Origin: a virus
Taxonomy: Duplodnaviria; Caudoviricetes
Length of the DNA stretch: 64,000 bases
Direction: 5' to 3' (one strand)
IMG/VR virus record: IMGVR_UViG_3300037312_000330
Location: 1-64,000 of that record
The notes beneath the pieces were generated by a model. The model was not told where the DNA came from. It did no database searches and worked only from the letters and a program-made list of their open reading frames with translations. Of the stretch, positions 1,323 to 30,435 are shown piece by piece (the first letter of the stretch is position 1; each line of letters opens with the position of its first letter). Both the position numbers and the translations under genes were made by a program.

Positions 1323-1353
1323 AAAGAAAAGGGACCCTAGGGTCCCTTTCTTT
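1323..1353. terminator. bidirectional intrinsic terminator
   Basis: Perfect 22-bp palindrome AAAGGGACCCTAGGGTCCCTTT (1328-1349) with an A-tract on the left and a T-tract on the right. It lies between convergent genes. Confidence 0.9.
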
Positions 1354-1912
1354 ATGCTGCGAGGAGTTGATCCTGTGCAGAAGTGTTCTGATGCCACATG
1401 ATGCTGAGAATTGGCTGACACTCAATCAACTTTCCGGTGGCAATTCGTTTCTTCAAGCGGGATCTGGTGTTGTATCGCTTGGTATCCGTAATCTTCTTCT
1501 CTTTACGCTGAGAAAGTAAGGTTGCGAGCTTCTCTTGATAAAGAGTCTCTGTGCGAGCCAATGCGAACGAATCGTTTACTACAGCACAAAGAGCAATGTA
1601 CTTCTCTTCTTGGAAGCGTTCCAGTTTTCGCTTCCACGCCAGCTCAAGGCGTTCTCGGGCGCTCATGTTTCTGGTAGGCGGTTCCTCGTCGATTTCACCA
1701 TCGCTGATCCGACGTCGATACACAGGAAGCGAAGTGCCGCCGTTCACAGGGGCATCGTATCTGCAAATCACCAGCTTTGGTCGCAGCGTTTGCATGATCT
1801 CCTTTGCGGTGGTAATCGAACAGTGCATCACGCGAGCCAGATCCACATAAGAGAACATCCTGTTCTCAAATTTATCCCACGCTCTTTCAACCGTCAACTT
1901 CGCAACTGTCAT
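1352..1912 (-). CDS. putative HTH DNA-binding protein
   Basis: The ATG at 1912 has a strong AAGGAGG RBS, so it is preferred over the ORF-track start at 1936. FSYVDLARVMHCSITTAKEIM is HTH-like, and the C-terminus is basic. Confidence 0.6.
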   Translation of the reverse strand: MTVAKLTVERAWDKFENRMFSYVDLARVMHCSITTAKEIMQTLRPKLVICRYDAPVNGGTSLPVYRRRISDGEIDEEPPTRNMSARERLELAWKRKLERFQEEKYIALCAVVNDSFALARTETLYQEKLATLLSQRKEKKITDTKRYNTRSRLKKRIATGKLIECQPILSIMWHQNTSAQDQLLAA

Positions 1913-1939
1913 AATGCCTCCTTTTGATAGTTGCACTAC

Positions 1940-1968: not shown

Positions 1969-2526
1969 TCAGTTGAGATCGGCAGCAAGCACGTCTACAG
2001 CTTCTTCCCATCGTATTAGAGATCTACTTTTATGTAGATTGAACCGGATAGCTGCAAGTGTTCTTGGTGTTGTCTTTGGTATTGATTGATGCGGTAGACC
2101 TGTTCTAACCAAATAGGCGTGTTCGTCAAAGTTGAGACTACCGAGCTCGCGCATAGAACTTGGATTGTACTTTGAGAACCACACACCCATCTTATATTCT
2201 TCGGTTGCTTTGACGGATGGCTCAAAGAACTTGAGACAGGACTTCCCGACTAGTTCTATATTGATAGAACAGTCCACTTTTCCGTTGGATGTCAAATCGT
2301 CGTGTATGACTGTCCAACATAGTTCATGGAAGCTGAATATCAAAAATTCAGGGGTCAGCTCCAAGTTGCGATCGGCGAACCAAATCTTTACTTCAGCACT
2401 TAGATTGTCAGACGAGCTTTGCACTAGGCGTTCGGTAGCATTGGGTAACGTGAAAGTATCTTGGAGTATTTTCTTTGGGAACGTCTTTACCATTCGCCAC
2501 AGGTCTGATTGCTGTGGCTGCATCAA
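1969..2526 (-). CDS. 2OG/Fe(II)-dependent dioxygenase-like (DSBH fold)
   Basis: HxD (IHDD), then CSINIEL, distal His (GLPH) and R-x-x-x-x-x-RF. Same pattern as four paralogs. Confidence 0.65.
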   Translation of the reverse strand: MMQPQQSDLWRMVKTFPKKILQDTFTLPNATERLVQSSSDNLSAEVKIWFADRNLELTPEFLIFSFHELCWTVIHDDLTSNGKVDCSINIELVGKSCLKFFEPSVKATEEYKMGVWFSKYNPSSMRELGSLNFDEHAYLVRTGLPHQSIPKTTPRTLAAIRFNLHKSRSLIRWEEAVDVLAADLN

Positions 2527-3095
2527 GTTTTCCTTGCTGTCAGATGAGACAGAACCCTTTCAGCAGGAACACCGAATCCGTATGATATCAGTAGTCTGTT
2601 TCCTAGACTGGTTTGGTAAACGGCATGCACACGGCTTACATCCAACAGATAAGAACATCCATCGTTTACCGTGTGATCTTCATACTCTCTGTCAAACGTG
2701 TCGAAGTCGTCGTCCAAACTAACGCGCGTGACAGCGACATCTGAGTCACGTATTCCTATGTTGATGCAGCACAGACGACCACCTTCATCGCGATGTGGTG
2801 CAATGTTTCCATACGTTCGCATGAAAGCAACTCTGTTTGGATCCAGAGGCCAATCTGGAAGCAAGGACGACAGATACTCGATAACGTGATAGGCTGCCTC
2901 AGGCCAATGTGTGCCGATATTTCGACAAAAGCTGATGCGTCCTGTGTGGAAACCTTCGTTGTTGTATTCCATCCACATGAAATTACTTACGCTAGGTTGC
3001 GGACTTCCATATTTGTGAACATGGACCGGCAGTGTATCCAGGATTCTGAGATCCATAGTTGCCGGAAAAGCGAACCCACTGCCGATCTTAATCAT
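2523..3095 (-). CDS. 2OG/Fe(II)-dependent dioxygenase-like
   Basis: IAPHRD...CCINIGI...LLDVSRVHAV...NRLLISYGF. The ATG at 3095 forms an ATGA overlap with the upstream stop. Confidence 0.7.
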   Translation of the reverse strand: MIKIGSGFAFPATMDLRILDTLPVHVHKYGSPQPSVSNFMWMEYNNEGFHTGRISFCRNIGTHWPEAAYHVIEYLSSLLPDWPLDPNRVAFMRTYGNIAPHRDEGGRLCCINIGIRDSDVAVTRVSLDDDFDTFDREYEDHTVNDGCSYLLDVSRVHAVYQTSLGNRLLISYGFGVPAERVLSHLTARKT

Positions 3096-3871
3096 GCACA
3101 CCACCCCTTCTTAAATACCCATCGGATAAGGAACGCACTCACATCCAACTCCCACCACGCTTCGCCGTGACGGTATGATCCTGCACGATTGTGGTGATTG
3201 TTGTGCCACCCTTCTCCAAGACTGAGGATCGTTGTGATGAAACTGTTACAGGAGCTGTCCTCTGTGTCGTGGAAGCGGTAGTTGCCAGGGATCCACTTGA
3301 GATGTGGGATGACTGCGACTGACGCGGCGCCGTGGAAACATCCGACTGCCGGGATCGCCCACAGGAAGGGCACGAGCAGTGGATTGATGGACGCCAGTAC
3401 GAGCACATATACCACCACCAGACTGAAGTAATGCTCGTGCAGCCACCGAAGTCGGCGATCACGTACGAACTTGCGATACACACTCAGGGGAATCGACATC
3501 TTCGGCCAGAAGGTGAACCAAGAGCCGAACAAGCCAGCATTCTTAGGACTGTGAGGGTCCTTGTCGTCATCCGAATGGATATGGTGGAAGATGTGCACCA
3601 CACCCCACGCAGTTGGTGATCCTAGCATTGGGAAGAAGCTGGCGATCAGCAGAAACCATTCCCGAAATCGGCCTGTCTTGAATGACTTGTGGCTCCAGTA
3701 GCGATGTAGGCTAATATTGACTCCGACTATGCCTGCGAACAGGAACATGCCGAACGCTAACCACGCCCAGAACCAGTCTCTTGATTGAAACAGGTAGTAG
3801 ATTCCGTAGGCGGCTGACATATGTGAGAACAGATGCAGTACACGGAACTTTTGCGTGATGCTTAGAGACAT
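3092..3871 (-). CDS. membrane fatty-acid desaturase family protein (delta-9-like)
   Basis: Three His boxes (HRYWSH, HIFHH, HNNHH), TM helices and the terminal WWELD motif. The ATG at 3871 has a GGAG RBS. Confidence 0.9.
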   Translation of the reverse strand: MSLSITQKFRVLHLFSHMSAAYGIYYLFQSRDWFWAWLAFGMFLFAGIVGVNISLHRYWSHKSFKTGRFREWFLLIASFFPMLGSPTAWGVVHIFHHIHSDDDKDPHSPKNAGLFGSWFTFWPKMSIPLSVYRKFVRDRRLRWLHEHYFSLVVVYVLVLASINPLLVPFLWAIPAVGCFHGAASVAVIPHLKWIPGNYRFHDTEDSSCNSFITTILSLGEGWHNNHHNRAGSYRHGEAWWELDVSAFLIRWVFKKGWCA

Positions 3872-4680
3872 TTGAAGTGCTCCGTTAGGCATATGCGATT
3901 GGTTGACCCACGTTTCAGGTGATCGTACTTGGGGTCGTCAGTAGTAGCCATGAATACTACGTCTGAGGGTGTGAATCGCTCACGTTGGCAAACTGATTGT
4001 TGTTGTTCCTCGTATGTCCGATACATGATGTTGACCGGAAGCCATTGCATGATCTGATTCCATGCTGCGACATTGTCATGACGGAAGTACCCAGACTGCA
4101 TCAAGCCTTCCATAAGTTGGACAGGCGTTCGGCTGAACCACAACCCCATACGCATCTCAGGTATCCCGAACATCTTGCTTGCACTGAACAGGACATCCGT
4201 TGTGTTAGCTGGTGGTTTCAGAGGAGAATGGGGGCGTTTAGAAGCACCGATATACGCGCAGTCTAGAGTGGATGCCGCAAACTGACTGGCATAACTTGTG
4301 ATGTGTTCTGGCTTATAGTTCCCGTCGATTGCAGATGGATATGTTTCGTACCAACGGTTGATGACTTTTCCAAGTGCAGGTGGCTGCAGGAAGCGAAGCC
4401 ATTCGTAGTCTCCACCACGCATACCTACATTTTCACCACGAGTGGCTATCATGTTCAGTGCGTCTGTGATCCCATTCACAGGGTACATGAAGCCGAATTC
4501 ACTGAGATCAATGTAGTCAGAGACGTAATGGGGAAACTCTGCCTTGAGATGTTTCAACCCAGACTGTACGTTTGAGGGACTGTGCGCCTGATATTCTTTG
4601 TGGTCAGCCAAAAGACCGTCTACTCTATCCAATCGAGGCACTGTTATGCCCCGTGCCTTGATGCGTTCCAGATTGTTCAT
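3862..4680 (-). CDS. PLP-dependent fold-type-I enzyme (aminotransferase-like, truncated)
   Basis: NGITDAL, LDCAY (Asp contacting the pyridine N), FSASKMFG (Schiff-base Lys) and RMG. Confidence 0.8.
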   Translation of the reverse strand: MNNLERIKARGITVPRLDRVDGLLADHKEYQAHSPSNVQSGLKHLKAEFPHYVSDYIDLSEFGFMYPVNGITDALNMIATRGENVGMRGGDYEWLRFLQPPALGKVINRWYETYPSAIDGNYKPEHITSYASQFAASTLDCAYIGASKRPHSPLKPPANTTDVLFSASKMFGIPEMRMGLWFSRTPVQLMEGLMQSGYFRHDNVAAWNQIMQWLPVNIMYRTYEEQQQSVCQRERFTPSDVVFMATTDDPKYDHLKRGSTNRICLTEHFKCL

Positions 4681-5251
4681 CTTGTTCCTTTGTTACGTCG
4701 AATTCAAACGTGTAGACGTCGACGTATGTACCGTCTTCCAGCTTCATGCCTCGTGGTTCCGTCCACATGAGTTTGGCACCCAAAGCAAGGTTGATATCGC
4801 GCGATGTGTCGTGCGCTGTTGACGATTGTGCTATCACTGTCTCGTATCCGCGTGCTCTTGCTTCAGACAGCATGTGCTTCTTGAGTCTATAGCCAACACC
4901 ATGAGCATACTGCATGTTCAATCGTGCTAACTTCTCACGGATGCGTGGAGGCTTGTCTACATAAGTTACTGATAGAGCTGCCTTGTGACGACGCTTGATC
5001 TCTGTTGGAAAGATCATAGTGAGCGTTCCTATTGTCTCTCCATCAAGTATGGCAAGCGCGATGCAAAGGTAGTTGTTCCCTATCTGATTGCGTATGAATG
5101 CTGGATCAGCATTGTACGAAGTTGCCAATATCTTATCTGGATACTTTGCAATAGCTTCCTGTCGCAGTCGTATGTGATCTAGGAACAAGATGTCTGGATC
5201 ATCTATGCGTAATGTGCGTACTATCAACTCTGGTTGTGGTTGCGCGTCCAT
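4625..5251 (-). CDS. GNAT-family N-acyltransferase
   Basis: TYV...HGVGYRLKKHML motif A, SRDINLALG motif B and the EPRGMKL...YVD C-terminal pattern. Confidence 0.8.
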   Translation of the reverse strand: MDAQPQPELIVRTLRIDDPDILFLDHIRLRQEAIAKYPDKILATSYNADPAFIRNQIGNNYLCIALAILDGETIGTLTMIFPTEIKRRHKAALSVTYVDKPPRIREKLARLNMQYAHGVGYRLKKHMLSEARARGYETVIAQSSTAHDTSRDINLALGAKLMWTEPRGMKLEDGTYVDVYTFEFDVTKEQDEQSGTHQGTGHNSASIG

Positions 5252-6024
5252 GTCTTCTTGTCCAGTGATTTGGCGATAAGGCCTTCAATGTCGATCTCAA
5301 ACCACCGATGCGAATTCACGATCTCTCGTGGGTGCTTGTGATGATTGTTGTGCCAGCCGAACCCAAACGTCAAGTATCCGAGCAACACGTGATTCCAGCT
5401 TTTGTCTGGTGTGTCGAAATTGCGGTAACTGCCTGGGATTTTCATGTGACTCAAGCTGCTGACCATATTTACACGACAGTGCTCGATCATTGCAGGAACG
5501 ATAAGAAAATTCGCCAGTGCCCATGGACCACCTGTTATCCACAAGACGAATGCCGTGAAATAGAACAATAGTATGAATTCCTTAGACAGGAACATCAAGA
5601 ACTTATCCTTGACAATACGACGCACACATCTGTTGTGGATGTCTGTCTTTTGTAGTGCTTCCTTACGCATTCGATATGTGAAGAACGATTCCCAAAAGCC
5701 GTAGTGATCTGGTGAAGAGGGATCTTCAATAGTGTCTGCGACCATGTGGTGCTTCTGGTGAATGGCTGTCCAGAACAAGACAGGTGCGTAGAAACTCCAC
5801 GTTCCAAGAATGGCTAACAGATACTCGATAGGCTTCCATGTGTCGATCTGTCGATGCGAGAACAGCTTGTGGAAACCTACACCTTGACCTACTGGCCCCA
5901 TAAGGAACCAGATACCGAAGATCAGCCACCAATTGAGTTGAATCTCATGGTGAAACTCTGCAATGCCAATTCCTACTGTCCAGACAAACATCGGGATAAA
6001 GACATATCGGAAGTAGCTGTTCAT
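5224..6024 (-). CDS. membrane fatty-acid desaturase family protein
   Basis: His boxes HKLFSH, HQKHH and HNNHH, plus WFEID. The ATG at 6024 forms an ATGA overlap with the upstream stop. Confidence 0.9.
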   Translation of the reverse strand: MNSYFRYVFIPMFVWTVGIGIAEFHHEIQLNWWLIFGIWFLMGPVGQGVGFHKLFSHRQIDTWKPIEYLLAILGTWSFYAPVLFWTAIHQKHHMVADTIEDPSSPDHYGFWESFFTYRMRKEALQKTDIHNRCVRRIVKDKFLMFLSKEFILLFYFTAFVLWITGGPWALANFLIVPAMIEHCRVNMVSSLSHMKIPGSYRNFDTPDKSWNHVLLGYLTFGFGWHNNHHKHPREIVNSHRWFEIDIEGLIAKSLDKKTWTRNHNQS

Positions 6025-6617
6025 ATTCTGTTCTTGTATTTCAACTCGTGTCTGAGGATTGCGATGTGCCTGTTTGCAGGCCATTCTAGCGGAGTTAGCT
6101 GCTGGAAAAGGCGAGGCAACTTCTCCAGTTCTGTTGGTGTCTTCAGGATGTGTATGGCACGCGAATCGTAACGATCTATGTTGCCGATCTCAGGATGTCG
6201 ACTGGTCAGATATTCTTCGACATTGTGCCAGTACACTCGACTCGGAATCCGTCGGACCATGTAAAACGAAAAACGCCCCTCCGACTCCATGATTTGCATC
6301 ACAGGCCAGATGAGGCGCTCGATTTGGTACGTACGGACTTTGGTGCTTATGTCACGAGCCCGCGTCAAACCGATCACCCAATCTCCAATCGAGTTCCGTT
6401 TGAGACCCCACAGACTGTTCACTGTGTAGCTCACATTCAGAAGGTCGATGTTGCCTGCTGCGTTCAGCTCTGCGCTCACGTATACCCCTGGACTTCCTTT
6501 GTAAATTTCATGTTCAATGGAATTCCAAGTGTTCCACTCATGTTGTGTCATGCGGTTACGCCATGAATGGTGCTTAAACTCGTCCAGCAACGGGAGATGG
6601 GTACGGTCTAGGATCAT
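6021..6617 (-). CDS. hypothetical protein, possibly a divergent GNAT fold
   Basis: W-VIGLTRARD followed by a helix and EGRFSFY resembles the GNAT core topology. Coupled by ATGA overlaps. Confidence 0.45.
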   Translation of the reverse strand: MILDRTHLPLLDEFKHHSWRNRMTQHEWNTWNSIEHEIYKGSPGVYVSAELNAAGNIDLLNVSYTVNSLWGLKRNSIGDWVIGLTRARDISTKVRTYQIERLIWPVMQIMESEGRFSFYMVRRIPSRVYWHNVEEYLTSRHPEIGNIDRYDSRAIHILKTPTELEKLPRLFQQLTPLEWPANRHIAILRHELKYKNRI

Positions 6618-7093
6618 TTCGGATTGGCTAGGAGAGACAGGATTCCAGATTCGTCCAATGCCTTGATCTCGTCCACAGTGAGACTGGTCTCGAAAGCGTC
6701 GTTCAAGGTTAGCTCTACCTTCGTGAGATTCAACATCTCGTCACGAACAGCTTTGAACTGCTGCAAGAGTGGCTCGTTAGCAACGGTGGTTTTGTATGCG
6801 TTGTAAGTGTCCAATGTGCTGAACATCAACATCGTGTACATCGTACCGGACGGCCCCATCATCTTCTCATACGCCTGCACTCCGGCAAACGTAGATGTGT
6901 ATTGTGTGAGCGTAGCTGTCAAGTCACGCATCTGCAAGTAGAGATCCTTATCGTAAGTTGTAGGATCTATCATGTAGCTACCGTCTGCATTCTTGTTATT
7001 TGCATTCACTATGTCATTGATGCGCTTAACAGTCATCCATCCAGGGCTCTTTGGATCGACAGGCTTCCAGGCGTTGATTTGCACAGCAGTCAT
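6614..7093 (-). CDS. hypothetical protein (Thr/Met/Tyr-rich, possible alpha+beta barrel)
   Basis: 159-aa ORF with ATGA overlaps on both sides. No catalytic motif recognised. Confidence 0.7.
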   Translation of the reverse strand: MTAVQINAWKPVDPKSPGWMTVKRINDIVNANNKNADGSYMIDPTTYDKDLYLQMRDLTATLTQYTSTFAGVQAYEKMMGPSGTMYTMLMFSTLDTYNAYKTTVANEPLLQQFKAVRDEMLNLTKVELTLNDAFETSLTVDEIKALDESGILSLLANPK

Positions 7094-7680
7094 AACGGTA
7101 CCTCTAGGTGTGAATTGACGTCTTCAAACGTCGGGTTGTCTTTGAAACGGAAGCTTACCATATATCGATGACACGGATTGTCCATGTTGTCTATCCTATG
7201 CCACACGTCTGTATTTACCAAAGTGGGTCGTTCGATGATGGTGCGGACAGACCCTTCATGTTCCCACTTGGTTGGATAGTTCTCTACTTCGTGTTTGGTG
7301 ACACGCACTATCGTCACTTTGTCTACGAATTCGTGTTCGACAAATGAATGATCGAACCATTCCATAATACCTTTGCCACAATCCCGAAGTGGGATGTTCA
7401 GGGCACACTTGCGATCACGACCATCCTTGTGGATCATGCCAGTGCTGTTCGCGCTGATACAGAACACCTGCATGAACTGTATTGGCAAGAATGACATACC
7501 TTGCTTGACGAAGTCCGGGATGTCGTCTGGAAACACGCGAGCGAACACGATGTGCGAATCTGGAGACTTTCTTACCTGTTCTTCAGACTTGGCATCGTCG
7601 ATGAACTGAGACGTCCATTTCTGGATGTCATAGTACCAAGGATTCCAATCGTACTTTCGGAAAACGTCAGCTAGTTCCAT
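7090..7680 (-). CDS. 2OG/Fe(II)-dependent dioxygenase-like
   Basis: IHKD...CALNIPL...LVNTDVWHRI...HRYMVSFRF. Confidence 0.75.
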   Translation of the reverse strand: MELADVFRKYDWNPWYYDIQKWTSQFIDDAKSEEQVRKSPDSHIVFARVFPDDIPDFVKQGMSFLPIQFMQVFCISANSTGMIHKDGRDRKCALNIPLRDCGKGIMEWFDHSFVEHEFVDKVTIVRVTKHEVENYPTKWEHEGSVRTIIERPTLVNTDVWHRIDNMDNPCHRYMVSFRFKDNPTFEDVNSHLEVPL

Positions 7681-7885
7681 TTTGTTCTCCTTGTTCCATA
7701 TATGATCGAATGATGTCTCGCGCGCCTTCCAGAGTCTGATACCAGCAGCTCAATTCGGCTAGACATTTGTCCTGGATAGTGATCTTTGGTTGGGAACCGG
7801 ATGAATCGTTTGCCTTTAGTTCTTCCAGTGTGTGTCCGCTGAAGAGCCAACGGAACATCTGTTCATCAGTTATTTCAGGAACCAT
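7667..7885 (-). CDS. small hypothetical protein (72 aa)
   Basis: Fills the gap between the desaturase and dioxygenase genes and overlaps both. Confidence 0.6.
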   Translation of the reverse strand: MVPEITDEQMFRWLFSGHTLEELKANDSSGSQPKITIQDKCLAELSCWYQTLEGARDIIRSYMEQGEQNGTS

Positions 7886-8652
7886 AGCCAGAGACGAGAC
7901 GGATCGAATTCATACCACTCGGTGCCGAAGTCATAGCGATTGGGCAGCGCGTGGTGCGAGTTATGGAATCCTTGACCCCAAGAGAGATAGCCAAAGATCA
8001 AGTTGTTCTGGCTGTTGTCTCGTGTCTCGAAATTCCGGTAACCGACCAAGAGCTTGCGATGTCCTACTATGTTCACCAGATTGTCCATCAGCAGGCTGAT
8101 TCCAGTCGGCAGAACACAGGCCGTTAGCGCCAACTTCCAGTCCAGCATAGTGATCAGAATAGGGGTCAACCACAGGATCTTGAGTTGGTGCTTGTGGAAC
8201 CATACGTGATTCGGTTTGCGTAGCAGATCAACTGCGTACTTCATATTGATGCTATTGGACATTTCTGTGATACCCAATGTCCACCCGAAGAAGGCATGCC
8301 ACAGACCCTTCTTCGGGGTGTGCGGATCGCGTTCTCTATCTGAATACGGATGGTGGTATCCTCTATGTATTGCGGTCCACGTTATAGAACTTCCTTGCCC
8401 ACTCAGTGCTCCGAAAAACAGGATCACGTTCTCTTTCCATCTCGGGAGCTGGTGTGTCCGGTGGCTGAAGACTCTGTGATATCCCACAGCAACTCCCAGT
8501 CCTGAGATCAAACACCACATAATGAAGGTCGTGAATAGATACTGTGCTGGGATCGTACCTATAGCAAGCAATGTAATGGTGATCACCGATAGTGTGATCG
8601 CTGGGGCGAACGAAAGCCATGCGTATTTAGAGATGTGTTTGAGACTGAACAT
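7870..8652 (-). CDS. membrane fatty-acid desaturase family protein
   Basis: His boxes HRVFSH, HRGYHH (H-X3-HH) and HNSHH, plus WYEFDPS. Confidence 0.9.
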   Translation of the reverse strand: MFSLKHISKYAWLSFAPAITLSVITITLLAIGTIPAQYLFTTFIMWCLISGLGVAVGYHRVFSHRTHQLPRWKENVILFFGALSGQGSSITWTAIHRGYHHPYSDRERDPHTPKKGLWHAFFGWTLGITEMSNSINMKYAVDLLRKPNHVWFHKHQLKILWLTPILITMLDWKLALTACVLPTGISLLMDNLVNIVGHRKLLVGYRNFETRDNSQNNLIFGYLSWGQGFHNSHHALPNRYDFGTEWYEFDPSRLWLWFLK

Positions 8653-8653
8653 G

Positions 8654-9574
8654 CTAAGCCATCAGTATTGCGACCTTCTCAGTGTTGATGTCAGTGTGGC
8701 ACCAACAGAAATCTTGTTCGCATGTTTCCATGTATTTTGGAACTGTCCATCCGTCTTTCAGAGTCCCTATTGCTTTGCGCTGTTGACACGAACGATCCCA
8801 GATCGTGCCATCAAAGTCCACTGTCATGAATTCAGTTGGTGTGGCGCACGAAAGCCCCTTGAAGTTGGTTAGACCCTTGGCAAGTAGTTGGCTCGCGCTT
8901 GTAATCTCAAATTTATTATCCGGGTCTTCCCAATCATTTAGATATGACACCTTGAGATTGTTCGCCAGTCTGTCTTCATTGTGCATCTCTATCCACTTCA
9001 GATGTCTAGGCAAATACACAGAGCTAACACGATTAGCTGCCACACCGAAGTTTTCGACTATTGGCTTCGCACTGACTGGAAGACCTTCGTCACAGAGGCG
9101 GAAGTAGACGTCCATGCATTCCTCGAATCTGGAGGGCAGCATTGGTAGGTTGACACGTTGGAGTTTTTCTTTGTAGAGCTTGGCGACTTCGATGAATCGG
9201 TCGAATTTTGTCCACTCCATGTGGTAGCTGAACACGACGGTGTGCAGCAGTCCGTGAACGCGCAGCCAAAAATCGAAAGGTCGCGCAGCATTTGACAACA
9301 TGCTGATGCGAACATTCTTTGGCCTTTCTGTTAGGATACGTTCGATATGCGGGTGATACGAAGGCTCACCACCAGAAAGGATTACGTGAGCGCGAGGCAT
9401 CTTTGCCATCGAGCTTAGTACCAGATCTGCGTCTTGCCATGGACTGCTACCTTCGTGGAACAGCGGTGTACAGTAGCTGCAACTATACGGACAAGTGTTT
9501 CCAAGAAGCCAAACGATCGTGTGGTAGTTTGGACGTCCGTTCGTCGGACGTAGCCAGTAGACTTCTTTGTCCAT
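8654..9574 (-). CDS. radical SAM enzyme with C-terminal Cys-rich (SPASM/twitch-like) domain
   Basis: CPYSCSYC (CX3CX2C), SGGEP, SNA, and C-terminal C...DGTIWDRSC...CEQDFCWC. Confidence 0.9.
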   Translation of the reverse strand: MDKEVYWLRPTNGRPNYHTIVWLLGNTCPYSCSYCTPLFHEGSSPWQDADLVLSSMAKMPRAHVILSGGEPSYHPHIERILTERPKNVRISMLSNAARPFDFWLRVHGLLHTVVFSYHMEWTKFDRFIEVAKLYKEKLQRVNLPMLPSRFEECMDVYFRLCDEGLPVSAKPIVENFGVAANRVSSVYLPRHLKWIEMHNEDRLANNLKVSYLNDWEDPDNKFEITSASQLLAKGLTNFKGLSCATPTEFMTVDFDGTIWDRSCQQRKAIGTLKDGWTVPKYMETCEQDFCWCHTDINTEKVAILMA

Positions 9575-10124
9575 TGTTTAAGATTCCTAGAGCATCTTCG
9601 TATCTGTACTGTGGCTTCGGTATGAAAGACGCCAGAAGCACAGGTTGGTTGCAGTTCGAAGTGTCAGCCTGATGAATTGTAGACGTATCCATGATGAATA
9701 ACTCACCTTCGTCTACATCGTAGGAAGCATTTGGTTCATTACTAGAGCAGAACTCAGTGTCAGAACCTTCTTTCGCAAGCAGAGGTTTATCTTGGTAGAA
9801 GTGCACACGCATCTTTCCGCGTATGCACATATTGACAGCAAAGCACGGAGAGCTTGGATGGTCTCGATGCAACATCGTAGCATTACGATTGTTGGCATCT
9901 AGTTTGAAATTGCGTAGGAATCTGAGTCCAAAACCAAACGTGCTCAGCATTCTCAAGGCTGGATCCGGAATCAGATGTTCCGCAGGCCACACTGAAAAAC
10001 TGCGACCATCATCATTCGGAATTGCTGCAAGAATGTCGGCGTCATTCTTTAGATAGGCGTGGAACTCAGCACTCCATTCCGGATTCAGCCTCAGTAGGCG
10101 TGGTTCGTGTGCGTTCGTGTTCAT
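9483..10124 (-). CDS. 2OG/Fe(II)-dependent dioxygenase-like
   Basis: LHRD...FAVNMCI...IMDTSTIHQA...VLLASF. Confidence 0.7.
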   Translation of the reverse strand: MNTNAHEPRLLRLNPEWSAEFHAYLKNDADILAAIPNDDGRSFSVWPAEHLIPDPALRMLSTFGFGLRFLRNFKLDANNRNATMLHRDHPSSPCFAVNMCIRGKMRVHFYQDKPLLAKEGSDTEFCSSNEPNASYDVDEGELFIMDTSTIHQADTSNCNQPVLLASFIPKPQYRYEDALGILNNGQRSLLATSDERTSKLPHDRLASWKHLSV

Positions 10125-10680
10125 GTTGAATGAAAGCTCTGACTATCATAGGCTCGTTGTATAACATCCGGCCGTACAACAGCTCCCAAAATTCATGGAA
10201 CTTCGGCCGCTCGTTTGGGGCGCTTTCGTATTCGGTATAGCAGTCATAATGCTGCAACAGAGCGTGCTTGCGCCATAGCCGCTTGTATGTTTCTAGGTGG
10301 CTCTGCGAATACAGAGCGTAGAAGCGTCTGTATCCAAGCTCTTCATGGAATTCCATCACACGTTTGAGTCCCACCGATAACGTATCTAATGGGGCCCCCG
10401 GAGCAGTGTATGCTTTGTTGATGTAGTAGCAGGGTTGCTGATTGGAGAACAGCGTGAATATCACAGCCAACAGACATCCTGGAGCAACATCGTCAGACCA
10501 CACACCAAATGCTGTACCAAGACTAGCAAAGTGCGGATCCAGTACATTGCGCATGTTCACAGATGCAAGATGCTGTTGAAGTGGACGCATTTCTGGCGGA
10601 ACTTGCAGGAAGCTGGCGCGCTGATTCATCAGCCGTTCAACGGATGGTGCGTTCAGGCTAGTAAGGACCGTGGCGTACAT
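10066..10680 (-). CDS. GNAT-like protein
   Basis: CYYINKAYT...GLKRVMEFHEELGYRRFY resembles the GNAT motif A/B arrangement. Confidence 0.55.
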   Translation of the reverse strand: MYATVLTSLNAPSVERLMNQRASFLQVPPEMRPLQQHLASVNMRNVLDPHFASLGTAFGVWSDDVAPGCLLAVIFTLFSNQQPCYYINKAYTAPGAPLDTLSVGLKRVMEFHEELGYRRFYALYSQSHLETYKRLWRKHALLQHYDCYTEYESAPNERPKFHEFWELLYGRMLYNEPMIVRAFIQHEHERTRTTPTEAESGMEC

Positions 10681-11600
10681 GACAGATCATTCACAAGTTG
10701 GTTGTATTCGTACTTGCACACTTCCATTGGGGGAAGTATCTCTTTCATCTTACGTTGCACGAACACGTTGGCCCATCCGAGAGCCTCGTATCCGTGGAAC
10801 TTCGATTGCGCTGCAAGTTTATAGCCGATCTCCTGTTCGTACACAGGTCGCTTGATCGACAGCAGAGTTATCTTTCCTGGCTCTTCATTATTGGCAACGC
10901 TTCGGATTCGTGGGTGCGTCAACCAAGTGTATAGCAGATTGGGTGTATAGGTGAAGTACTCGTTGATGATCGGATGTCCCGTGTCATATGAGTATCTGTA
11001 CGTCACACCGTCTTCGTCCTCCCGGTAGACGTAATACCAGGAAGTTGGAGCATGCACCTGACCGTTGGCATGTTGTTGATGCTTCTGCAGATAGATTTCC
11101 CCGCCCATCACCACAGGGTAGTCGGTACATTGCCGTGCATATTCCAACACCGTGAGATACGCGAGCTGACTGCATTGGTACTTGGTAGCCAAGTCCATGT
11201 AGCCTTCGTTCTTGATGTATCGCATGACATCATGGTGCCACACGTATGCTTTGAGTCCCAGCTCGTCGCATACTTCGAATGCGTTGTGGACTTCATGTTC
11301 GTTCAAACGATCGGCGAACTGGATAATGTGCAGGTGAGGCTTTGCCCCGTGTTTCAGTAGCATTCTAACAAGAAGCTCTGAGTCCGCGCCTCCGCTGTAG
11401 AACACGTTAAGATCAGTCCCGTGGTCCTCTATCAGCTTCCGTGTGGCAATGTTCAGTTCACTGTACCACGAGAATGGCATGTATATCGCTTCGTCGAACT
11501 GTAGTTCGAACTTATCGTCTGCGCTTCTTCGTGCTGAAAAAGGCTTTCCGTTTACTGTCCACCACAGGTGATCGTTGTTTGTCAGGTTTAGGTTCTTCAT
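10653..11600 (-). CDS. PP-loop adenine nucleotide alpha-hydrolase-like ATPase (asparagine synthetase / QueC / TilS superfamily; no glutaminase domain seen)
   Basis: VFYSGGADSE PP-loop and a downstream VVMGGE. Confidence 0.75.
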   Translation of the reverse strand: MKNLNLTNNDHLWWTVNGKPFSARRSADDKFELQFDEAIYMPFSWYSELNIATRKLIEDHGTDLNVFYSGGADSELLVRMLLKHGAKPHLHIIQFADRLNEHEVHNAFEVCDELGLKAYVWHHDVMRYIKNEGYMDLATKYQCSQLAYLTVLEYARQCTDYPVVMGGEIYLQKHQQHANGQVHAPTSWYYVYREDEDGVTYRYSYDTGHPIINEYFTYTPNLLYTWLTHPRIRSVANNEEPGKITLLSIKRPVYEQEIGYKLAAQSKFHGYEALGWANVFVQRKMKEILPPMEVCKYEYNQLVNDLSCTPRSLLA

Positions 11601-12030
11601 TTTGCTTGGCGAGTTCTAGAGCCTTTGCCACTGTCTCAGGATCACCCTCAGATACCTTGGTGATCCATTGTCCGATTTCTTCTGCAGACAAACCATTCGG
11701 GATGCCGTAGCGTGGTCCAGCGAGAGCCTTCTCCATTCGCTCGATGAAGTTAGGTCCTAGTGGATCGCCATGTGGATCATCCAACTGCTCTTGCGCCAAA
11801 ATGTCGGCAATGATCTCCTTAGACTCAGGATCGTCACTTCCCTTATACGTGCCATCCTTTATCTGTTGACGAAGGGTCTCAACTTCCTTCTTGATAACAG
11901 CCACATCTCTCGACGTCTGTTCCGTTTTCGCTGGAGAAGATGGTGTGCTTTCCGCAGCACTTGGTTCCGCCGCATGAACATGGCTCTGTTGGTGGGGTTG
12001 TGGCACCGAGAACTCTATTCCAATCTTCAC
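11512..12030 (-). CDS. hypothetical protein
   Basis: 172-aa ORF with a low-complexity N-terminus and a basic C-terminus. The true start is uncertain because it overlaps the upstream ORF by 152 nt. Confidence 0.6.
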   Translation of the reverse strand: MKIGIEFSVPQPHQQSHVHAAEPSAAESTPSSPAKTEQTSRDVAVIKKEVETLRQQIKDGTYKGSDDPESKEIIADILAQEQLDDPHGDPLGPNFIERMEKALAGPRYGIPNGLSAEEIGQWITKVSEGDPETVAKALELAKQNEEPKPDKQRSPVVDSKRKAFFSTKKRRR

Positions 12031-12581: not shown

Positions 12582-13388
12582 TCAGCTCGCGATTGGTTTA
12601 ACGTAGTCACTGATAGCTGTGACCCACGCTGGATCGGCTACACTAGAGAGTTCGAATCCTGTGATTCCAATGCAGTTCTTGAAGGCTAGCACACCAGCTT
12701 CCTCTGTCAACGTCGGACGCGTGTCCTGTACAGGAACGTGCATACACGAACCGATCTCTCCGTTGCAAACGCTGCATTCGTAGTTGTTGACCCAAGCACC
12801 CATTGAGTAGGCGTTGATCTCGCCGCTTGCAATCTTGGAAACGTAGTCGCTGTACTTGGAGCGATCGAACGTCGCCAGCATCAGAAGTTTCCATACCTTA
12901 CCACCGCCCCAACCGTCAAGGCGGCGCATCGACGTATCAGCAATCATGCCATGCGCCTTGGTGATGTCGTCGTTCTGATGTTCGCGATATGTTGGCTTGC
13001 GACGCCACGATTCGTAGGCCAGTTGCCCGGTTTCCGGATTCGGACGCATCAGCTCTTTGAGCGGGAACGCCACACGGTTGCGGTTCGGCAGATCAGACGG
13101 CACGACGATCACAGGCACAATCAGATAGTCGTTGACGTCAGGGCTGATGTGATACGGGCTGCTGAAGAACGGAAGGACCTGCTCGAAGTCCAGCGGAATA
13201 CCGCCCGCTTTTTCAGCACCCGCAACTTGAACCACCATCTGTCCAGTGCTAGCGCGTTGGATGTTACCGCTCTTCTTCGATTCCTTATGGATGTCGATTA
13301 TTGGCAGCACTTCAGTGGTGTCGGCGTAGACGGCGTTCTGTCCGTGGTTGAACAAACGTCGGCTGCCGGCTTCGTAGATCTTGGTCAT
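12582..13388 (-). CDS. prohead protease-like (HK97/herpes SH-clan) with a Zn-finger insertion
   Basis: EH (His), YSMG (Ser) and FELSSVADPA match the caudoviral prohead protease pattern. A CSVC...CMH insertion is present. Confidence 0.6.
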   Translation of the reverse strand: MTKIYEAGSRRLFNHGQNAVYADTTEVLPIIDIHKESKKSGNIQRASTGQMVVQVAGAEKAGGIPLDFEQVLPFFSSPYHISPDVNDYLIVPVIVVPSDLPNRNRVAFPLKELMRPNPETGQLAYESWRRKPTYREHQNDDITKAHGMIADTSMRRLDGWGGGKVWKLLMLATFDRSKYSDYVSKIASGEINAYSMGAWVNNYECSVCNGEIGSCMHVPVQDTRPTLTEEAGVLAFKNCIGITGFELSSVADPAWVTAISDYVKPIAS

Positions 13389-13978
13389 TCTGCGTCCTCT
13401 TTATAGGCAGAGAAGGTGAGATGTATTCGTGGTTGATTGAGATTCGCGTTAACTGCGGTGTGCATCACGTCAGTGCGCAACGTGTACAGAGATCCAGCTT
13501 CCGGCATCCGGTACACAATGTCTTGTACTATGAAGAACGCCTCTGGATGAGTGCTTACAACCAGATGGAATCGCACACCTACGTCGTCTTTGTGATACGA
13601 CAGACACTGTTTCGGCCCAAGGTATCGGATCATTGGTCTGCTGGGAACATATCCGAATATCTTCGCATAATCGAAGAGCGGTTGTATGAATTCGGCACCA
13701 CGTACCAGATGGACAAAGTCCCTATCCTTGTAGTTCGTGGTGTGCAAACGCCCACAACCGATTGTCAACTGATCGTGGTGCGTTACAGAATCCAGAATGT
13801 CCTTATTAGGGACAGCAAGACACAACTGATCGTAGAGTGAATAGTTCTGCCACTCTATCCAGTACTCGTACGCTGCCTGTGCGATTTCTGTGTAGATGCC
13901 GCACTTGTTGACAGGGGCACGGGTTGCTTCCGGTCGCACATGGAACCCATGTGTGAGCGCAGACGCTTTGGTAGTCAT
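13385..13978 (-). CDS. Asp/Asn beta-hydroxylase-like 2OG/Fe(II) dioxygenase
   Basis: LSYHKD...RFHLVV...TLRTDVMHTAVN...PRIHLTF. Confidence 0.8.
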   Translation of the reverse strand: MTTKASALTHGFHVRPEATRAPVNKCGIYTEIAQAAYEYWIEWQNYSLYDQLCLAVPNKDILDSVTHHDQLTIGCGRLHTTNYKDRDFVHLVRGAEFIQPLFDYAKIFGYVPSRPMIRYLGPKQCLSYHKDDVGVRFHLVVSTHPEAFFIVQDIVYRMPEAGSLYTLRTDVMHTAVNANLNQPRIHLTFSAYKEDAE

Positions 13979-15469: not shown

Positions 15470-16095
15470 GATTCCCTCTTTATTGCATAGGTGAACTCTG
15501 GCTGTGGATTCCGTATCCACAGATTTGCATGTTGTTTGAGCATAGGCTTGCGCAATGCAACTGTCGGACTGTTAGCACTCAACTGCGCTTCGAACAAAAT
15601 GTCGAGTCCTGTTTTGGACAAGCCAAACACTGAGAACGCGGGCGCTACTTTGTTCGGATCGCCGTCTTCACGTATCAGTGCTCCGGGCAGTACACGCACC
15701 GTACAATCTGCCGTTGGAAGTGCTTGCAGCTCGAATGGACGCATCGGCAGTTTTGGCTCCACTGGATCCAGCATGTCTACTGGAGCGAATTCCGGCGTGC
15801 TTACTTCTAGCGGAACTACCTTACTGTCGTCCGCTATCAGAGGCACAATCTTGGAATCGGCGTGTTGTTCGAATTCTTGAACTTTCTCAAGATATCGGTT
15901 AGCCATTGAGGGATCCATCATAAACTTGCCGTAGACTTCAGGTGTCACAGGCAAGTAGATGAAGTTGGGGCCAGACTCTTCGACAACTGCGTGGATACGA
16001 CACCCGAGAAATCTATACAGATCAGCGAGCTTTGGGGTGCTTCCGTCGACCGATTGCGACGGGTTCATCTTCTCGAATAGCACAAACATCTTCAA
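15466..16095 (-). CDS. hypothetical protein
   Basis: 209-aa ORF coupled between the glycosyltransferase and epimerase genes. Confidence 0.7.
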   Translation of the reverse strand: MKMFVLFEKMNPSQSVDGSTPKLADLYRFLGCRIHAVVEESGPNFIYLPVTPEVYGKFMMDPSMANRYLEKVQEFEQHADSKIVPLIADDSKVVPLEVSTPEFAPVDMLDPVEPKLPMRPFELQALPTADCTVRVLPGALIREDGDPNKVAPAFSVFGLSKTGLDILFEAQLSANSPTVALRKPMLKQHANLWIRNPQPEFTYAIKRES

Positions 16096-16879
16096 GTCTC
16101 TCTATGAACGTATCCGTGATCAGGTTCTTGTCGTAGTAGTGGAATGGTTTCGTGATCCGCACACCCTCGATGAACATGCGACATTCGTCGTCTACCATAA
16201 ATCCCATACTGCGTGTCCACTCAGGGTCGGACCATGCATTGATTAGTGGCTTGGCATGTACAAATTGATTGCCATCCACTCTGGACAGACCAAAGACCTT
16301 GGCCCACGCTAGACTATAGATCGAGTCAGTAGTTGGTGGCAACATCTTCTCTGTTCTGTTCCAAAGCTTCAGGCTGTACCATTTTCCGAACAGCTCATAA
16401 ACCTCTTGGTAGAACTCTTTTGCTTGCGGACGATGCTTGTCGAATGAGAAACATGCGCTGTAGATAGTTGGCAATCCTAAACCAGATTCTACAGCACGAT
16501 AGGCCACCGTATCGTTAACAGCACCAAGGATGTCACAAGCCACTCCGCTAGTGCAAGGTAGGCTCTGATTGTGATACAAATGACAACCTAGTGGGAACAG
16601 CACATCTGCGTCTGTCTTAAACGTGATGTCGTATGGACTCTTCTCATACGCAAATGCTTCGTATTGGAAACTGTCAGAAGCACTCTTGATCGTAACGACA
16701 TTAGCTACAGCCGACAGTTTCTCCAGAAACTTTAGACTTGTTGCGTGGCTCTCATGGATTACGACAGTCGTTGTCAATCCTAGAACCTTGCGTGCAGTCA
16801 GAGCTTGACAGTACGCCATCTTTTGGTACTGAAGACCAAAGGCGAACGTCAAGATGCCGCTAGTTGGTTTGTTTTCCAT
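16022..16879 (-). CDS. GT-A fold nucleotide-diphospho-sugar transferase (GT8-like)
   Basis: GILTFAFG N-terminus, SPYDITFKTDADVLF (DxD) and TDSIYSLA. Confidence 0.7.
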   Translation of the reverse strand: MENKPTSGILTFAFGLQYQKMAYCQALTARKVLGLTTTVVIHESHATSLKFLEKLSAVANVVTIKSASDSFQYEAFAYEKSPYDITFKTDADVLFPLGCHLYHNQSLPCTSGVACDILGAVNDTVAYRAVESGLGLPTIYSACFSFDKHRPQAKEFYQEVYELFGKWYSLKLWNRTEKMLPPTTDSIYSLAWAKVFGLSRVDGNQFVHAKPLINAWSDPEWTRSMGFMVDDECRMFIEGVRITKPFHYYDKNLITDTFIERLEDVCAIREDEPVAIGRRKHPKAR

Positions 16880-25373: not shown

Positions 25374-25397
25374 TTTTGTCCCGTTGTGAAGAGTAGT

Positions 25398-25420: not shown

Positions 25421-25427
25421 TTCCCTA

Positions 25428-30386: not shown

Positions 30387-30397
30387 GTTATATCAGA

Positions 30398-30425: not shown

Positions 30426-30435
30426 AGAGTTCATA

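Follow-up and report, generated by a model that had tools for sequence, protein, structure and literature searches.

The question raised by this locus is whether fifteen closely packed genes in a giant phage form one functional unit and, if so, which molecule their products modify. The locus belongs to a 248,884-bp uncultured virus from rhizosphere (soil) metagenomes, and the window (the whole stretch analysed here, 64,000 nucleotides) is the start of that record. Fifteen minus-strand ORFs fill positions 1969-11600, hereafter the cassette (Table 1), and each junction between them is either an overlap of 4-92 nt or a gap of 1 nt, the longest overlaps possibly being overstated because the earliest possible start codon was taken; the genes are predicted to be translationally coupled. 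The preliminary description presented this run as a 15-gene operon. The tight overlapping run is confirmed but the closed unit is not, given that the run extends upstream and ends only after the gene at 1352-1936: the 15 genes are a segment of a longer minus-strand array that reaches from about 59 kb down to a terminator-like hairpin, and no similar terminator is present on that strand within the cassette. For orthologues in related contigs, pN/pS is 0.18-0.30 (0.35 for one gene, Table 1) with synonymous sites saturated, indicative of purifying selection, which argues that these are real genes rather than chance ORFs.

Table 1. Features of the cassette, its downstream boundary and the upstream module (L numbers, related loci; F numbers, protein families).
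Position	Strand	Feature	Length (aa)	Basis and remarks
1327..1350	.	Bidirectional intrinsic-terminator-like hairpin, strong		10-bp stem, T runs; ends the minus-strand array
1352..1936	-	Protein of family F23, closing the variable island	194	Same position in L005 and L011; no family match in domain searches
1969..2526	-	Cupin/2OG-oxygenase paralogue	185	HDD...H...R; L007 orthologue 61% identical, pN/pS 0.35
2523..3104	-	Cupin/2OG-oxygenase paralogue	193	HRD...H...R, Arg at H+10; L009 and L010 members of its profile family are annotated as PF05118
3092..3892	-	Delta9-type membrane desaturase, clade B	266	PF00487 62.2 bits; HRYWSH, HIFHH, HNNHH; pN/pS 0.24
3862..4680	-	Short fold-type-I PLP enzyme	272	Atlas model pTM 0.88
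4625..5251	-	Probable GNAT	208	Acetyltransf_1 15.3 bits, E 0.025, below cut-off
5224..6084	-	Delta9-type membrane desaturase, clade C	286	PF00487 49.9 bits; HKLFSH, HQKHH, HNNHH
6021..6617	-	May be very remotely related to the GNAT partner	198	Homologues in L005 and L007
6614..7093	-	Protein without PDB or Pfam match	159	Homologues in L004 and L005 only
7090..7680	-	Cupin/2OG-oxygenase paralogue	196	HKD...H...R; pN/pS 0.30 versus L004
7667..7885	-	Acidic ORF, putative	72	Overlaps both neighbours
7870..8652	-	Delta9-type integral-membrane desaturase, clade A	260	PF00487 58.5 bits; HRVFSH, HRGYHH, HNSHH
8654..9574	-	Small radical SAM enzyme, Cys-rich C-terminus	306	PF04055 32.5 bits
9483..10124	-	Cupin/2OG-oxygenase-like paralogue	213	HRD...H without aligned Arg; profile iteration, alignment; orthologues in L004 and L005; pN/pS 0.30
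10066..10680	-	GNAT-fold partner of the PP-loop enzyme	204	Adjoins the PP-loop gene
10653..11600	-	Stand-alone AsnB-type PP-loop adenylating/amide-forming enzyme	315	First cassette gene; family signature
13385..13978	-	Fifth cupin, PF05118 Asp/Asn beta-hydroxylase family	197	24.8 bits versus cut-off 22.6; F7, in 7 of 9 loci plus L015 and L019
13975..14484	-	Canonical GNAT acetyltransferase	169	PF00583 29.5 bits; F6, in 7 of 9 loci plus L019
14501..15520	-	NAD-dependent NDP-sugar epimerase/dehydratase	339	PF01370 106 bits; matches phrog_540
16022..17667	-	Two tandem paralogues, probably GT8-like GT-A glycosyltransferases	285 + 262	

Pfam and profile searches together with structure matches bear out twelve of the family assignments made earlier, namely those of the PP-loop protein, its GNAT-fold neighbour, three desaturases, four 2OG oxygenases of the AspH/LpxO-like kind, the radical SAM and PLP enzymes and, with weak support, a second GNAT. 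The PP-loop protein, previously described as an amide-forming PP-loop ATPase, carries the motif SGGADS. AsnB-type synthetases are the nearest structures to its model, and the leading matches include beta-lactam synthetase, carbapenam synthetase and TsnB9, which identifies it as an adenylating enzyme of the AsnB/beta-lactam-synthetase type. By the chemistry of the family, it would be expected to adenylate a carboxylate and then form an amide. The members of this family found here come from phage or metagenome contigs only, and distant members in other big phages are fused to GNAT domains.

The structures nearest to the GNAT partner include, among others, the protein acetyltransferases of the RimI and NatA type, and the protein is also close to the small-amine acetyltransferases of the SpeG, EctA and phosphinothricin type. 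The GNAT fold proposed earlier holds for this protein, but it does not resemble long-chain N-acyl synthases, which weakens the specific idea of an N-acyl-amine product. The partner is also unlike long-chain acyltransferases of the LuxI/FeeM/OlsB type, an observation that counts against a function in envelope modification. Complex prediction for the PP-loop/GNAT pair gives a score of 0.45 (best control, 0.02); of 80 solved complexes 58 attain the mark that this score attains, as do 2 of 110 mismatched pairs, yet among those reaching it with scores of 0.60 or less there are just 7 of the 80 solved complexes and both mismatched pairs, so that the support for the pair from this source is weak.

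All three desaturases recognized earlier exceed the Pfam cut-off, and each contains three histidine boxes and hydrophobic segments (two of them N-terminal in the clade A protein). They are deep paralogues, about 30% identical, that fall into separate clades of the desaturase tree: clade A is represented once in every one of the nine loci of the tree, whereas clade C additionally takes in L004, L005 and L007, and clade B L005 and L007. In L019, which lies beyond the nine-locus tree, a desaturase also adjoins the PP-loop/GNAT pair. To our knowledge, all characterized members of the PF00487 family act on hydrophobic, membrane-embedded substrates. A search of the genome for a desaturase electron donor found neither Fer2 nor flavodoxin.

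The four cassette proteins of about 190 amino acids with the HxD...H pattern have no Pfam match of their own; iterated profiles connect them to PF05118 members in the relatives, in agreement with their earlier description as 2OG oxygenases. An alignment of 22 cupin sequences shows that the two histidines and the aspartate are invariant and that most sequences have an arginine 9-11 residues past the distal histidine. The cassette cupins are soluble, with no predicted membrane segment, whereas LpxO is membrane-anchored; this difference, too, speaks against an envelope function.

The identification of the radical SAM enzyme is strengthened by a CxxxCxxC motif (CPYSCSYC). The gene matches phrog_13987, weak matches to viperin, QueE and PqqE span just the cluster-binding region, and among the related loci orthologues are present in L004 and L011 only. 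For the PLP enzyme, the Atlas model matches aminotransferases of the HisC/CobD/alliinase type (TM 0.73-0.79), and the conserved D-x-x-Y, S-x-S-K and an arginine at K+8 (D140, Y143, S168, K169 and R177, invariant in 4 homologues) support the original assignment; the best PDB profile match is CobD, in the region of the lysine (E 0.066). The second GNAT matches the NCBIfam phosphinothricin acetyltransferase model at E 0.13 and has no homologue in the related loci, being unique to the studied phage. By contrast, the "GNAT-like" label previously given to the 198-aa protein finds no support in the Atlas or the PDB; comparison with the partner family by hhalign yields E 0.0016 with a probability of 16%. 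The 72-aa ORF has neither a homologue in any related locus nor a family match.

The cassette is common to an uncultured clade of jumbo myoviruses. In 10 of 10 related giant-phage loci, the PP-loop gene and the GNAT-like gene are followed, in the same order, by the orthologous desaturase and at least one cupin, so that the gene set co-occurs among relatives rather than being scattered. The cassette did not come together by chance, and its conserved core comprises about four genes, for the AsnB-type PP-loop enzyme, the GNAT-fold partner, the Delta9-type desaturase and one or more AspH/LpxO-family 2OG/Fe(II) cupins, the remainder being lineage-variable. Further desaturases and cupins, the radical SAM enzyme and the short PLP enzyme are gained and lost between close relatives, two genes are unique to the studied phage among the related loci, and identity to a given relative ranges from 34% to 76% between adjacent genes. 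In the more distant phage L015, a GNAT::PP-loop fusion occurs together with a cupin and with the GT8-like pair, but no desaturase lies within 10 kb, so the PP-loop/GNAT/cupin part can function in the absence of lipid desaturation. According to the preliminary description, no characterized lytic-phage operon is known to have the full set; in agreement with this, it is absent from cultured phages, and no paper describing it was found.

The unit is larger than first reported because a GT8-like/epimerase/GNAT/cupin module upstream is also conserved and, in most relatives, syntenic with the cassette. In the family of the GT8-like pair, a DxD motif (D99, D101), H252 and K256 are invariant in 18 sequences; there is no Pfam match, and the best PDB profile match, to glycogenin-1 across the DxD region, is not significant (E=1). 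Genes for an endolysin and a holin-like protein lie directly upstream of the cassette along with these transferases and the epimerase, and the cassette sits between lysis and tail-fibre genes (three fibres of about 1600 amino acids are encoded). The cultured phages whose prohead protease is closest to that of the studied phage have Gram-negative hosts. The earlier statement that FAAL, ACP, KS and NRPS are missing is correct for ACP within the cassette but not genome-wide, as an intact ACP with a DSL motif is encoded at about 138 kb, 126 kb from the cassette, among replication genes. Genome searches detected no AMP-ligase, PPTase, PlsC or OlsB-type genes, and no Lpx, OlsA or OlsB genes accompany the cassette.

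The core order retained in all ten loci, the clade A desaturase in nine, the coupling, the lack of an internal terminator, purifying selection and the gene fusions together argue for one functional unit. Tentatively, and with somewhat less than an even chance of being right, we propose that the variable enzyme island of this late-gene cassette tailors a membrane-associated acylated molecule of the infected cell's envelope using host-made precursors, the acyl supply included. Lipid A/LPS or an aminolipid would be candidate targets, as would the acyl chains of phospholipids in combination with a head group that is an amine or carboxylate. The PP-loop/GNAT pair might build or cap an amide-linked polar group, the desaturases would put double bonds into acyl chains within the membrane, the cupins would act as hydroxylases in the way of LpxO (on lipid A) and OlsC (on ornithine lipid), and the radical SAM and PLP enzymes could supply lineage-specific steps. 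The lysis genes, GT8-like transferases and epimerase upstream and the Gram-negative hosts of the phages nearest by protease favour the envelope as the target; GT8 is a family of LPS-core transferases. The position between tail-fibre and lysis genes, together with a fibre-like variability, fits remodelling of the envelope late in infection, which, if it occurs, could mask receptors, exclude other phages or control lysis. The L015 locus with no desaturase within 10 kb, the missing electron donor and the remote ACP are observations against this proposal.

A serious rival, albeit an unlikely one, is post-translational modification of virion proteins (fibres or other late proteins) or of a RiPP-like peptide. 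Hydroxylation of Asp/Asn would then fall to the AspH-type enzymes, acetylation of amines to the GNATs, and cross-linking or methylation to the radical SAM enzyme, and the AsnB-type enzyme would form an (iso)peptide or amide bond in the manner of lasso cyclases. Beta-hydroxylase/acetyltransferase neighbourhoods with tail-collar or collagen-like proteins as proposed substrates have been described (Iyer et al. 2010, PMC2938197). The cassette adjoins tail-fibre or baseplate genes in every locus examined, the extra enzymes of relatives include a C39 peptidase, an ATP-grasp enzyme and radical SAM enzymes of SPASM size, and both the RimI/NatA likeness of the GNAT partner and the L015 arrangement point the same way, as does the fact that the founding members of PF05118 hydroxylate protein residues. 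However, an integral-membrane acyl desaturase is present in 10 of 10 loci of the clade, and we know of none that acts on a protein or peptide; there is no conserved precursor-like small ORF (the 72-aa ORF is confined to the studied phage), and Pfam annotations of 8 neighbourhoods include no RRE or lasso B-protein gene. It is quite unlikely that the product is instead a diffusible small molecule made from host precursors, such as a hydroxylated unsaturated N-acyl amide, a polyamine or amino-acid conjugate, a signal, a toxin or a metal chelator. AsnB-type enzymes of natural-product pathways yield amides, beta-lactams and hydroxamates, and the structural matches of the PP-loop enzyme, the small-amine likeness of its partner and the mix-and-match tailoring content, reminiscent of natural-product cluster evolution, are compatible with such a product; yet the region contains no scaffold-forming enzyme (KS, NRPS, NIS synthetase or AMP-ligase), exporter or resistance gene, and it is surrounded by the late genes for structure and lysis of a jumbo phage of virulent type, where the benefit of a secreted product is not evident.

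Very unlikely, in our view, is an extension of the upstream glycosylation module by the 15 genes for the synthesis of an unusual amino or amidated sugar with which virions, phage DNA or the LPS/O-antigen of the host would be glycosylated. O-antigen and nonulosonic-acid pathways routinely employ AsnB-type amidotransferases, PLP aminotransferases, GNATs, SDRs and radical SAM enzymes, the upstream synteny is in accord with this possibility, and genes of the class II aldolase and SGL lactonase-like kinds are also present in relatives; but the PLP enzyme is HisC/CobD-like rather than DegT-like, the GT8 assignment is itself weak, and we know of no role for membrane acyl desaturases in sugar pathways. 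An equally low chance is given to the absence of any single pathway, with the locus being a zone where independent auxiliary genes with different host targets are gained and lost. The content varies even among the closest relatives, as do identities of adjacent genes, two genes are confined to the studied phage, and other phages carry one desaturase or one 2OG oxygenase as a stand-alone auxiliary gene (PMC5776448); the constant core order, the GNAT/PP-loop fusions, the translational coupling and the repeated drawing on the same narrow enzyme classes, unlike random morons, count against it.

Among known systems, the envelope reading finds its enzymatic precedent in LpxO (lipid A 2-hydroxylase) and OlsC (ornithine-lipid hydroxylase), PF05118 members that act on acyl chains of envelope lipids; they share the Pfam family of the fifth cupin and the HxD...H triad with an arginine after the distal histidine, whereas the phage cupins are proteins of about 190 amino acids with no predicted membrane segment, four of the five below the Pfam threshold. 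The phage PP-loop protein differs from asparagine synthetase B, beta-lactam and carbapenam synthetases and TsnB9 in lacking the N-terminal glutaminase domain (315 aa in total), is 11-14% identical to AsnB-type synthetases and belongs to a family of its own, with some members GNAT-fused. Cyanophages also carry PF00487 membrane acyl-lipid desaturases, for which a role in changing the membrane lipids of the infected host is assumed (Roitman et al. 2018, PMC5776448). Those are single auxiliary genes, whereas the cassette has three deep paralogues, one of which every member of the clade shares, and couples them to genes for a ligase, GNATs and oxygenases. The closest parallel to the oxygenase arrays is the T4-like Synechococcus cyanophage Syn9 with its 10 tandem dioxygenases (Iyer et al. 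2010, PMC2938197). The cassette, from a soil jumbo myovirus rather than a cyanophage, has only AspH/LpxO-like (PF05118-linked) oxygenases, with no halogenases or JmjC members, and interleaves them with membrane desaturases, GNATs, a ligase of the AsnB type and the radical SAM and PLP enzymes; in both phages, however, several divergent 2OG/Fe(II) double-stranded beta-helix oxygenases run together in a variable region and are interpreted as tailoring enzymes.

The 15 minus-strand ORFs of the cassette (1969-11600) are present at the coordinates assigned to them in the preliminary description; neighbouring genes either overlap by 4-92 nt or are separated by 1 nt. The genes of this unit are real, but the unit itself is larger than was reported, given that the genes upstream of it are syntenic in most relatives. 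The island, which is flanked by conserved genes, belongs to an array that extends from ~59 kb down to 1.3 kb with almost all genes on the minus strand, in the order tail sheath, baseplate, three fibres of ~1600 aa each at 20592-35448, lysis region and then the cassette enzymes. Sigma-70-like promoters number 18 against an expected 23 and are thus not enriched, and no regulatory repeats were found within the cassette region. The window spans the initial 64 kb of the whole genome record (G000), an IMG/VR entry of 248,884 bp that is rated complete by CheckV; the public runs containing the cassette region are rhizosphere metagenomes, none of them RNA.

Features flanking the cassette (strand and remarks as annotated)
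Feature	Coordinates	Strand	Remark
Strong bidirectional terminator	1327-1350	.	beyond the F23 gene
Family F23 gene	1352-1936	-	conserved gene bounding the far side of the island
Prohead-protease-like gene	12582-13388	-	phrog_18299, E 6e-66; 35-46% identity with proteases of jumbo phages
PF05118 cupin	13385-13978	-	above Pfam threshold
Canonical GNAT	13975-14484	-	upstream module
NDP-sugar epimerase/dehydratase	14501-15520	-	upstream module
Two tandem GT8-like paralogues	16022-17667	-	invariant DxD and H...K

Ten loci were compared, namely the window, eight fetched neighbourhoods and one IMG/VR locus. The synteny comparison that the preliminary description had proposed shows a common core in all ten: the PP-loop gene comes first, then a GNAT-like gene, and after these a desaturase and one or more cupins. 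The PP-loop and GNAT-like genes are adjacent in 8 of the 10 loci; two genes lie between them in L008 and one in L010. Outside this core, the content differs even between the closest relatives: a 306-aa radical SAM enzyme is encoded in 3 loci, radical SAM enzymes of 465-543 aa in 4, and the PLP enzyme, or relatives of it with 239 aa, in 4. Additional genes, for ATP-grasp, class II aldolase, SGL and C39 peptidase, are each found in single lineages. Orthologue pairs show pN/pS values of 0.18-0.30, with synonymous sites saturated.

The PP-loop protein (10653-11600, 315 aa) contains the SGGxDS motif and has the AsnB-like synthetase-domain fold, and is predicted to work like the synthetase half of AsnB. 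The alignment to AsnB starts only at residue ~72, and the N-terminal Ntn glutaminase domain is missing; therefore, this protein is not a glutamine-dependent asparagine synthetase. The family is large: a profile search that covered 1.84 billion representatives identifies 1280 clusters (at 50% identity) with E<=1e-3 and 618 with E<=1e-10. Fifty-one homologues are 40-80% identical to the window protein, many of them encoded on contigs of 100-243 kb, and two distant relatives are on contigs of ~1.5 kb, without surrounding genes. Every contig of this family that was examined is a phage or metagenome contig; a profile scan of GTDB species genomes finds no relative, and a scan of IMG/VR finds one locus. 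We know of no characterised member. In L010, a 193-aa match to the PP-loop profile (11423-12004, E 8e-52), one gene downstream of the full-length gene, looks like a partial duplicate.

The partner gene at 10066-10680 encodes a protein with a GNAT fold that has no Pfam match even at E 10; a PDB profile search returns nothing significant, and the Q/RxxGxG/A motif that binds CoA pyrophosphate is not seen in its alignment. The nearest structures are acetyltransferases of small amines and of protein N-termini, not long-chain N-acyl synthases. Several members of the PP-loop family are fused to Acetyltransf_1 domains, at either the N- or the C-terminus, and the two located fusions are encoded on big-phage contigs (GNAT::PP-loop and PP-loop::GNAT, respectively, in L015, 10001-11437, and L017, 10001-11425; 474-478 aa). 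The L015 fusion gene lies behind a gene for a 2880-aa fibre-like protein and the same F4/GT8-like/GT8-like genes as in the window, is followed by a PF05118 cupin gene and has no desaturase gene within 10 kb. The L017 contig, which is rich in aminoacyl-tRNA synthetase genes, carries a second PP-loop paralogue directly upstream of the fusion. In sequence, the GNAT domain of the fused protein P0108 is not specifically similar to either GNAT of the window. Complex prediction for the window pair yields 0.45 versus 0.02 for the best control, which the tool rates as weak support; of the solved complexes, 58 of 80 attain this mark, as do 2 of 110 mismatches, but only 7 of the 80 attain it with values of 0.60 or lower, along with both mismatches. 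Joint action of the PP-loop enzyme with a GNAT is supported by these fusions, by the fact that the two genes are constantly adjacent and by their translational coupling.

The three proteins encoded at 3092-3892, 5224-6084 and 7870-8652 are, judging by their sequences, membrane fatty-acid desaturases of the Delta9/DesA-DesC type (PF00487, 62.2, 49.9 and 58.5 bits versus the cut-off of 29.7). All three contain the HxxxxH, HxxHH and HxxHH boxes in this order (the second box of 7870-8652 is HRGYHH) and hydrophobic segments with Kyte-Doolittle peaks of at least 1.6, and they share ~30% pairwise identity. Their scores against the NCBIfam DesA equivalog model, 54-71 bits, are far under the 400-bit cut-off, so none of them is orthologous to a characterised enzyme. 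A maximum-likelihood tree of 19 desaturases contains four deep clades. Clade A, which includes 7870-8652, has exactly one member in each locus of the tree, and the other two window desaturases belong to clades B (3092-3892) and C (5224-6084), which are also found in some relatives. Among phages, a window desaturase matches a protein of Pelagibacter phage Mosig with 31% identity. A match in 'Acinetobacter phage MD-2021a' (L014, CAKLQH020000002.1) was discarded because its neighbourhood is plainly bacterial: trp, accD, btuB, baeSR and cardiolipin synthase genes flank the desaturase, and this 254-kb contig looks like a bacterial chromosome rather than a phage.

The four cupins of the island (9483-10124, 7090-7680, 2523-3104 and 1969-2526; ~190 aa, HxD...H), which resemble 2OG/Fe(II) oxygenases of the AspH/LpxO type, have no Pfam match, and only the upstream cupin passes the PF05118 cut-off (24.8 versus 22.6 bits); the four are connected to each other and to PF05118-annotated proteins solely through iterated profiles built over the related loci. 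The H, D, H iron triad is invariant in the 22 aligned cupins, and most contain an arginine 9-11 residues past the distal histidine, the basic residue expected for the C5 carboxylate of 2OG, including 4 of the 5 window cupins (it is missing in 9483-10124). A sixth PF05118 cupin is encoded outside the window (G000 192287-192607, plus strand).

The radical SAM protein contains the motif CPYSCSYC (CxxxCxxC) at residues 28-35 and matches PF04055 with 32.5 bits versus 29.5; a search of subfamily models reached no subfamily. A second radical SAM enzyme, of 463 aa, is encoded elsewhere in the genome (G000 ~109070-109663, plus strand). The protein encoded at 3862-4680 has no Pfam match and, according to Atlas structure comparison (TM 0.73-0.79), is a short PLP enzyme of fold type I. 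All 4 homologues retain D140, Y143, S168, K169 and R177, and with them D-x-x-Y, S-x-S-K with its Schiff-base lysine, and an arginine at K+8; the aspartate is expected to contact the pyridine nitrogen and the arginine the phosphate. D140, Y143, K169 and R177 would correspond to D222, Y225, K258 and R266 of AAT. The product of 4625-5251 is a weak GNAT (15.3 bits, under the cut-off), and PDB profile searches with it and with 6614-7093 yield nothing significant. No support was found for the earlier GNAT-like assignment of 6021-6617, for which Atlas gave nothing and the PDB profile search nothing significant. Like 6614-7093 and the 72-aa ORF, it has no family assignment.

Between the upstream module and the PP-loop gene lie the prohead-protease-like and DUF6527 genes. 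The relatives of the former come from jumbo phages of Vibrio, Xanthomonas, Erwinia, Pseudomonas, Burkholderia and Dickeya, and by this similarity the phage groups with the jumbo myoviruses of Gram-negative bacteria as a non-cultured relative. The gene sits amid enzyme genes, distant from every capsid gene in the window, and keeps this position in L004, L005, L011 and L019. The 136-aa DUF6527/BubE-domain protein (12169-12579, minus strand, 54.8 bits) could be a counter-defence deconjugase; BubE, which is encoded in ubiquitin-like (Bub) conjugation operons of bacteria, has recently been shown to act as a Ser-His protease on both peptide and isopeptide bonds (bioRxiv 10.1101/2024.11.21.623953). 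L004, L005 and L011 also contain weaker copies, with the PP-loop gene immediately downstream. A candidate 172-aa ORF (11512-12030, minus strand) with a low-complexity N-terminus, a basic tail and a weak FlgM-like match (E 0.013) shares 89 nt with the conserved N-terminus of the PP-loop gene.

The best PDB profile match of the GT8-like pair is glycogenin with E=1, that is, nothing significant, so the GT8 assignment is a lead only; together with the epimerase, these genes look like a glycosylation module beside the fibres. The pair recurs in a distant phage (L015, 6282-7992). In the rest of the genome, an intact acyl carrier protein (G000 137910-138227, plus strand; PP-binding, 38 bits, DSL motif) is encoded 126 kb from the cassette, between topoisomerase IV/gyrase-like and ribonucleotide reductase genes. 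In none of the ten loci is an ACP gene adjacent to the PP-loop/GNAT pair. The 249-kb genome contains no AMP-ligase, PPTase, acyl-ACP synthetase, Fer2 ferredoxin or flavodoxin gene, and neither an OlsB/NAS-type N-acyltransferase (PF13444) nor a PlsC-type O-acyltransferase (PF01553); hence, precursors and electrons must come from the host.

The reading favoured here, quite possible if far from assured, is that the cassette tailors a membrane-associated acylated envelope molecule. The desaturases would point to a lipid substrate, an integral-membrane Delta9-type enzyme being encoded in every locus of the clade, and to our knowledge the substrates of their known relatives are exclusively hydrophobic chains embedded in membranes. 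Two members of PF05118, LpxO and OlsC, are hydroxylases of acyl chains, in lipid A and in ornithine lipid, respectively. The AsnB-type enzyme would convert a carboxylate to an amide, and the GNAT would acylate an amine. An envelope target would fit the placement between fibre and lysis genes, the fibre-like variability and the putative LPS-core-type transferases upstream. Against this reading stand the resemblance of the GNAT partner to acetyltransferases of small amines or protein N-termini and the presence in L015 of the ligase/GNAT/cupin part without desaturases.

The strongest rival is modification of a protein or peptide, in line with the proposal that tail-collar and collagen-like proteins are substrates of co-encoded beta-hydroxylases and acetyltransferases (Iyer et al., PMC2938197); such a role leaves no place for the universal desaturases, and the relatives share no conserved precursor gene. 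A RiPP precursor was not found beside the maturases, where the sole small ORF, of 72 aa, lacks homologues in the relatives; in these relatives, small ORFs that adjoin the PP-loop gene are either DUF6527-like or unassigned. The cassette might also make a diffusible small molecule, extend the glycosylation module or be a mere accumulation of independent auxiliary genes. Queuosine/7-deazaguanine DNA modification, suggested by QueC/QueE-like matches, was rejected, the QueC match being weak and limited to the PP-loop, and the fold AsnB-type. A bacterial ceramide pathway (PLP, GNAT, SDR and ACP) was also rejected, the PLP enzyme being short, HisC/CobD-like and present in 4 of 9 loci.

As the preliminary description had supposed for characterised phages, neither the PP-loop gene nor the set was found in cultured phages. 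Megablast of the cassette region against 50,697 phage records and tblastn of the PP-loop protein and the cupin 2523-3104 against phages give no match, the only phage match of the radical SAM protein is 23% identical (Campylobacter phage CP21), and an IMG/VR pattern scan for this enzyme returns nothing. No relevant paper on desaturases in jumbo or huge phages turned up in literature searches. As far as we know, phage lipid auxiliary genes have so far been limited to single desaturases, and phage dioxygenase arrays, first noted in 2010, have been without a known substrate since. The cassette joins desaturases and oxygenases to a predicted amide-forming ligase/GNAT pair, in a conserved order and across a whole jumbo-phage clade, and its four-gene core is a defined set that can be expressed and assayed; the PP-loop family, with its 618 clusters and some GNAT fusions, merits attention by itself. 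If the target is an envelope lipid, large lytic phages would chemically remodel the host membrane or LPS, with a bearing on superinfection exclusion, receptor masking and lysis.

Precedents are available in cyanophages, for single desaturases (PMC5776448) and for dioxygenase arrays, e.g., 10 tandem dioxygenases in phage Syn9 (PMC2938197). The cassette is alike in kind to such multi-oxygenase tailoring arrays and adds to them a defined ligase/GNAT/desaturase core. A more specific and rather doubtful proposition is that this clade of giant soil phages encodes a modular lipid-tailoring pathway, in which the AsnB-type ligase/GNAT pair cooperates with several LpxO-like hydroxylases and as many as three desaturases, either to rewrite lipid A or to produce an aminolipid specific to the phage in the infected cell, the variable enzyme set co-evolving with the host envelope type. 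If so, the variability of these enzymes would resemble that of tail fibres in its co-evolution with the host envelope, and bacterial viruses would have in this pathway a counterpart to the sphingolipid pathway that coccolithoviruses encode.
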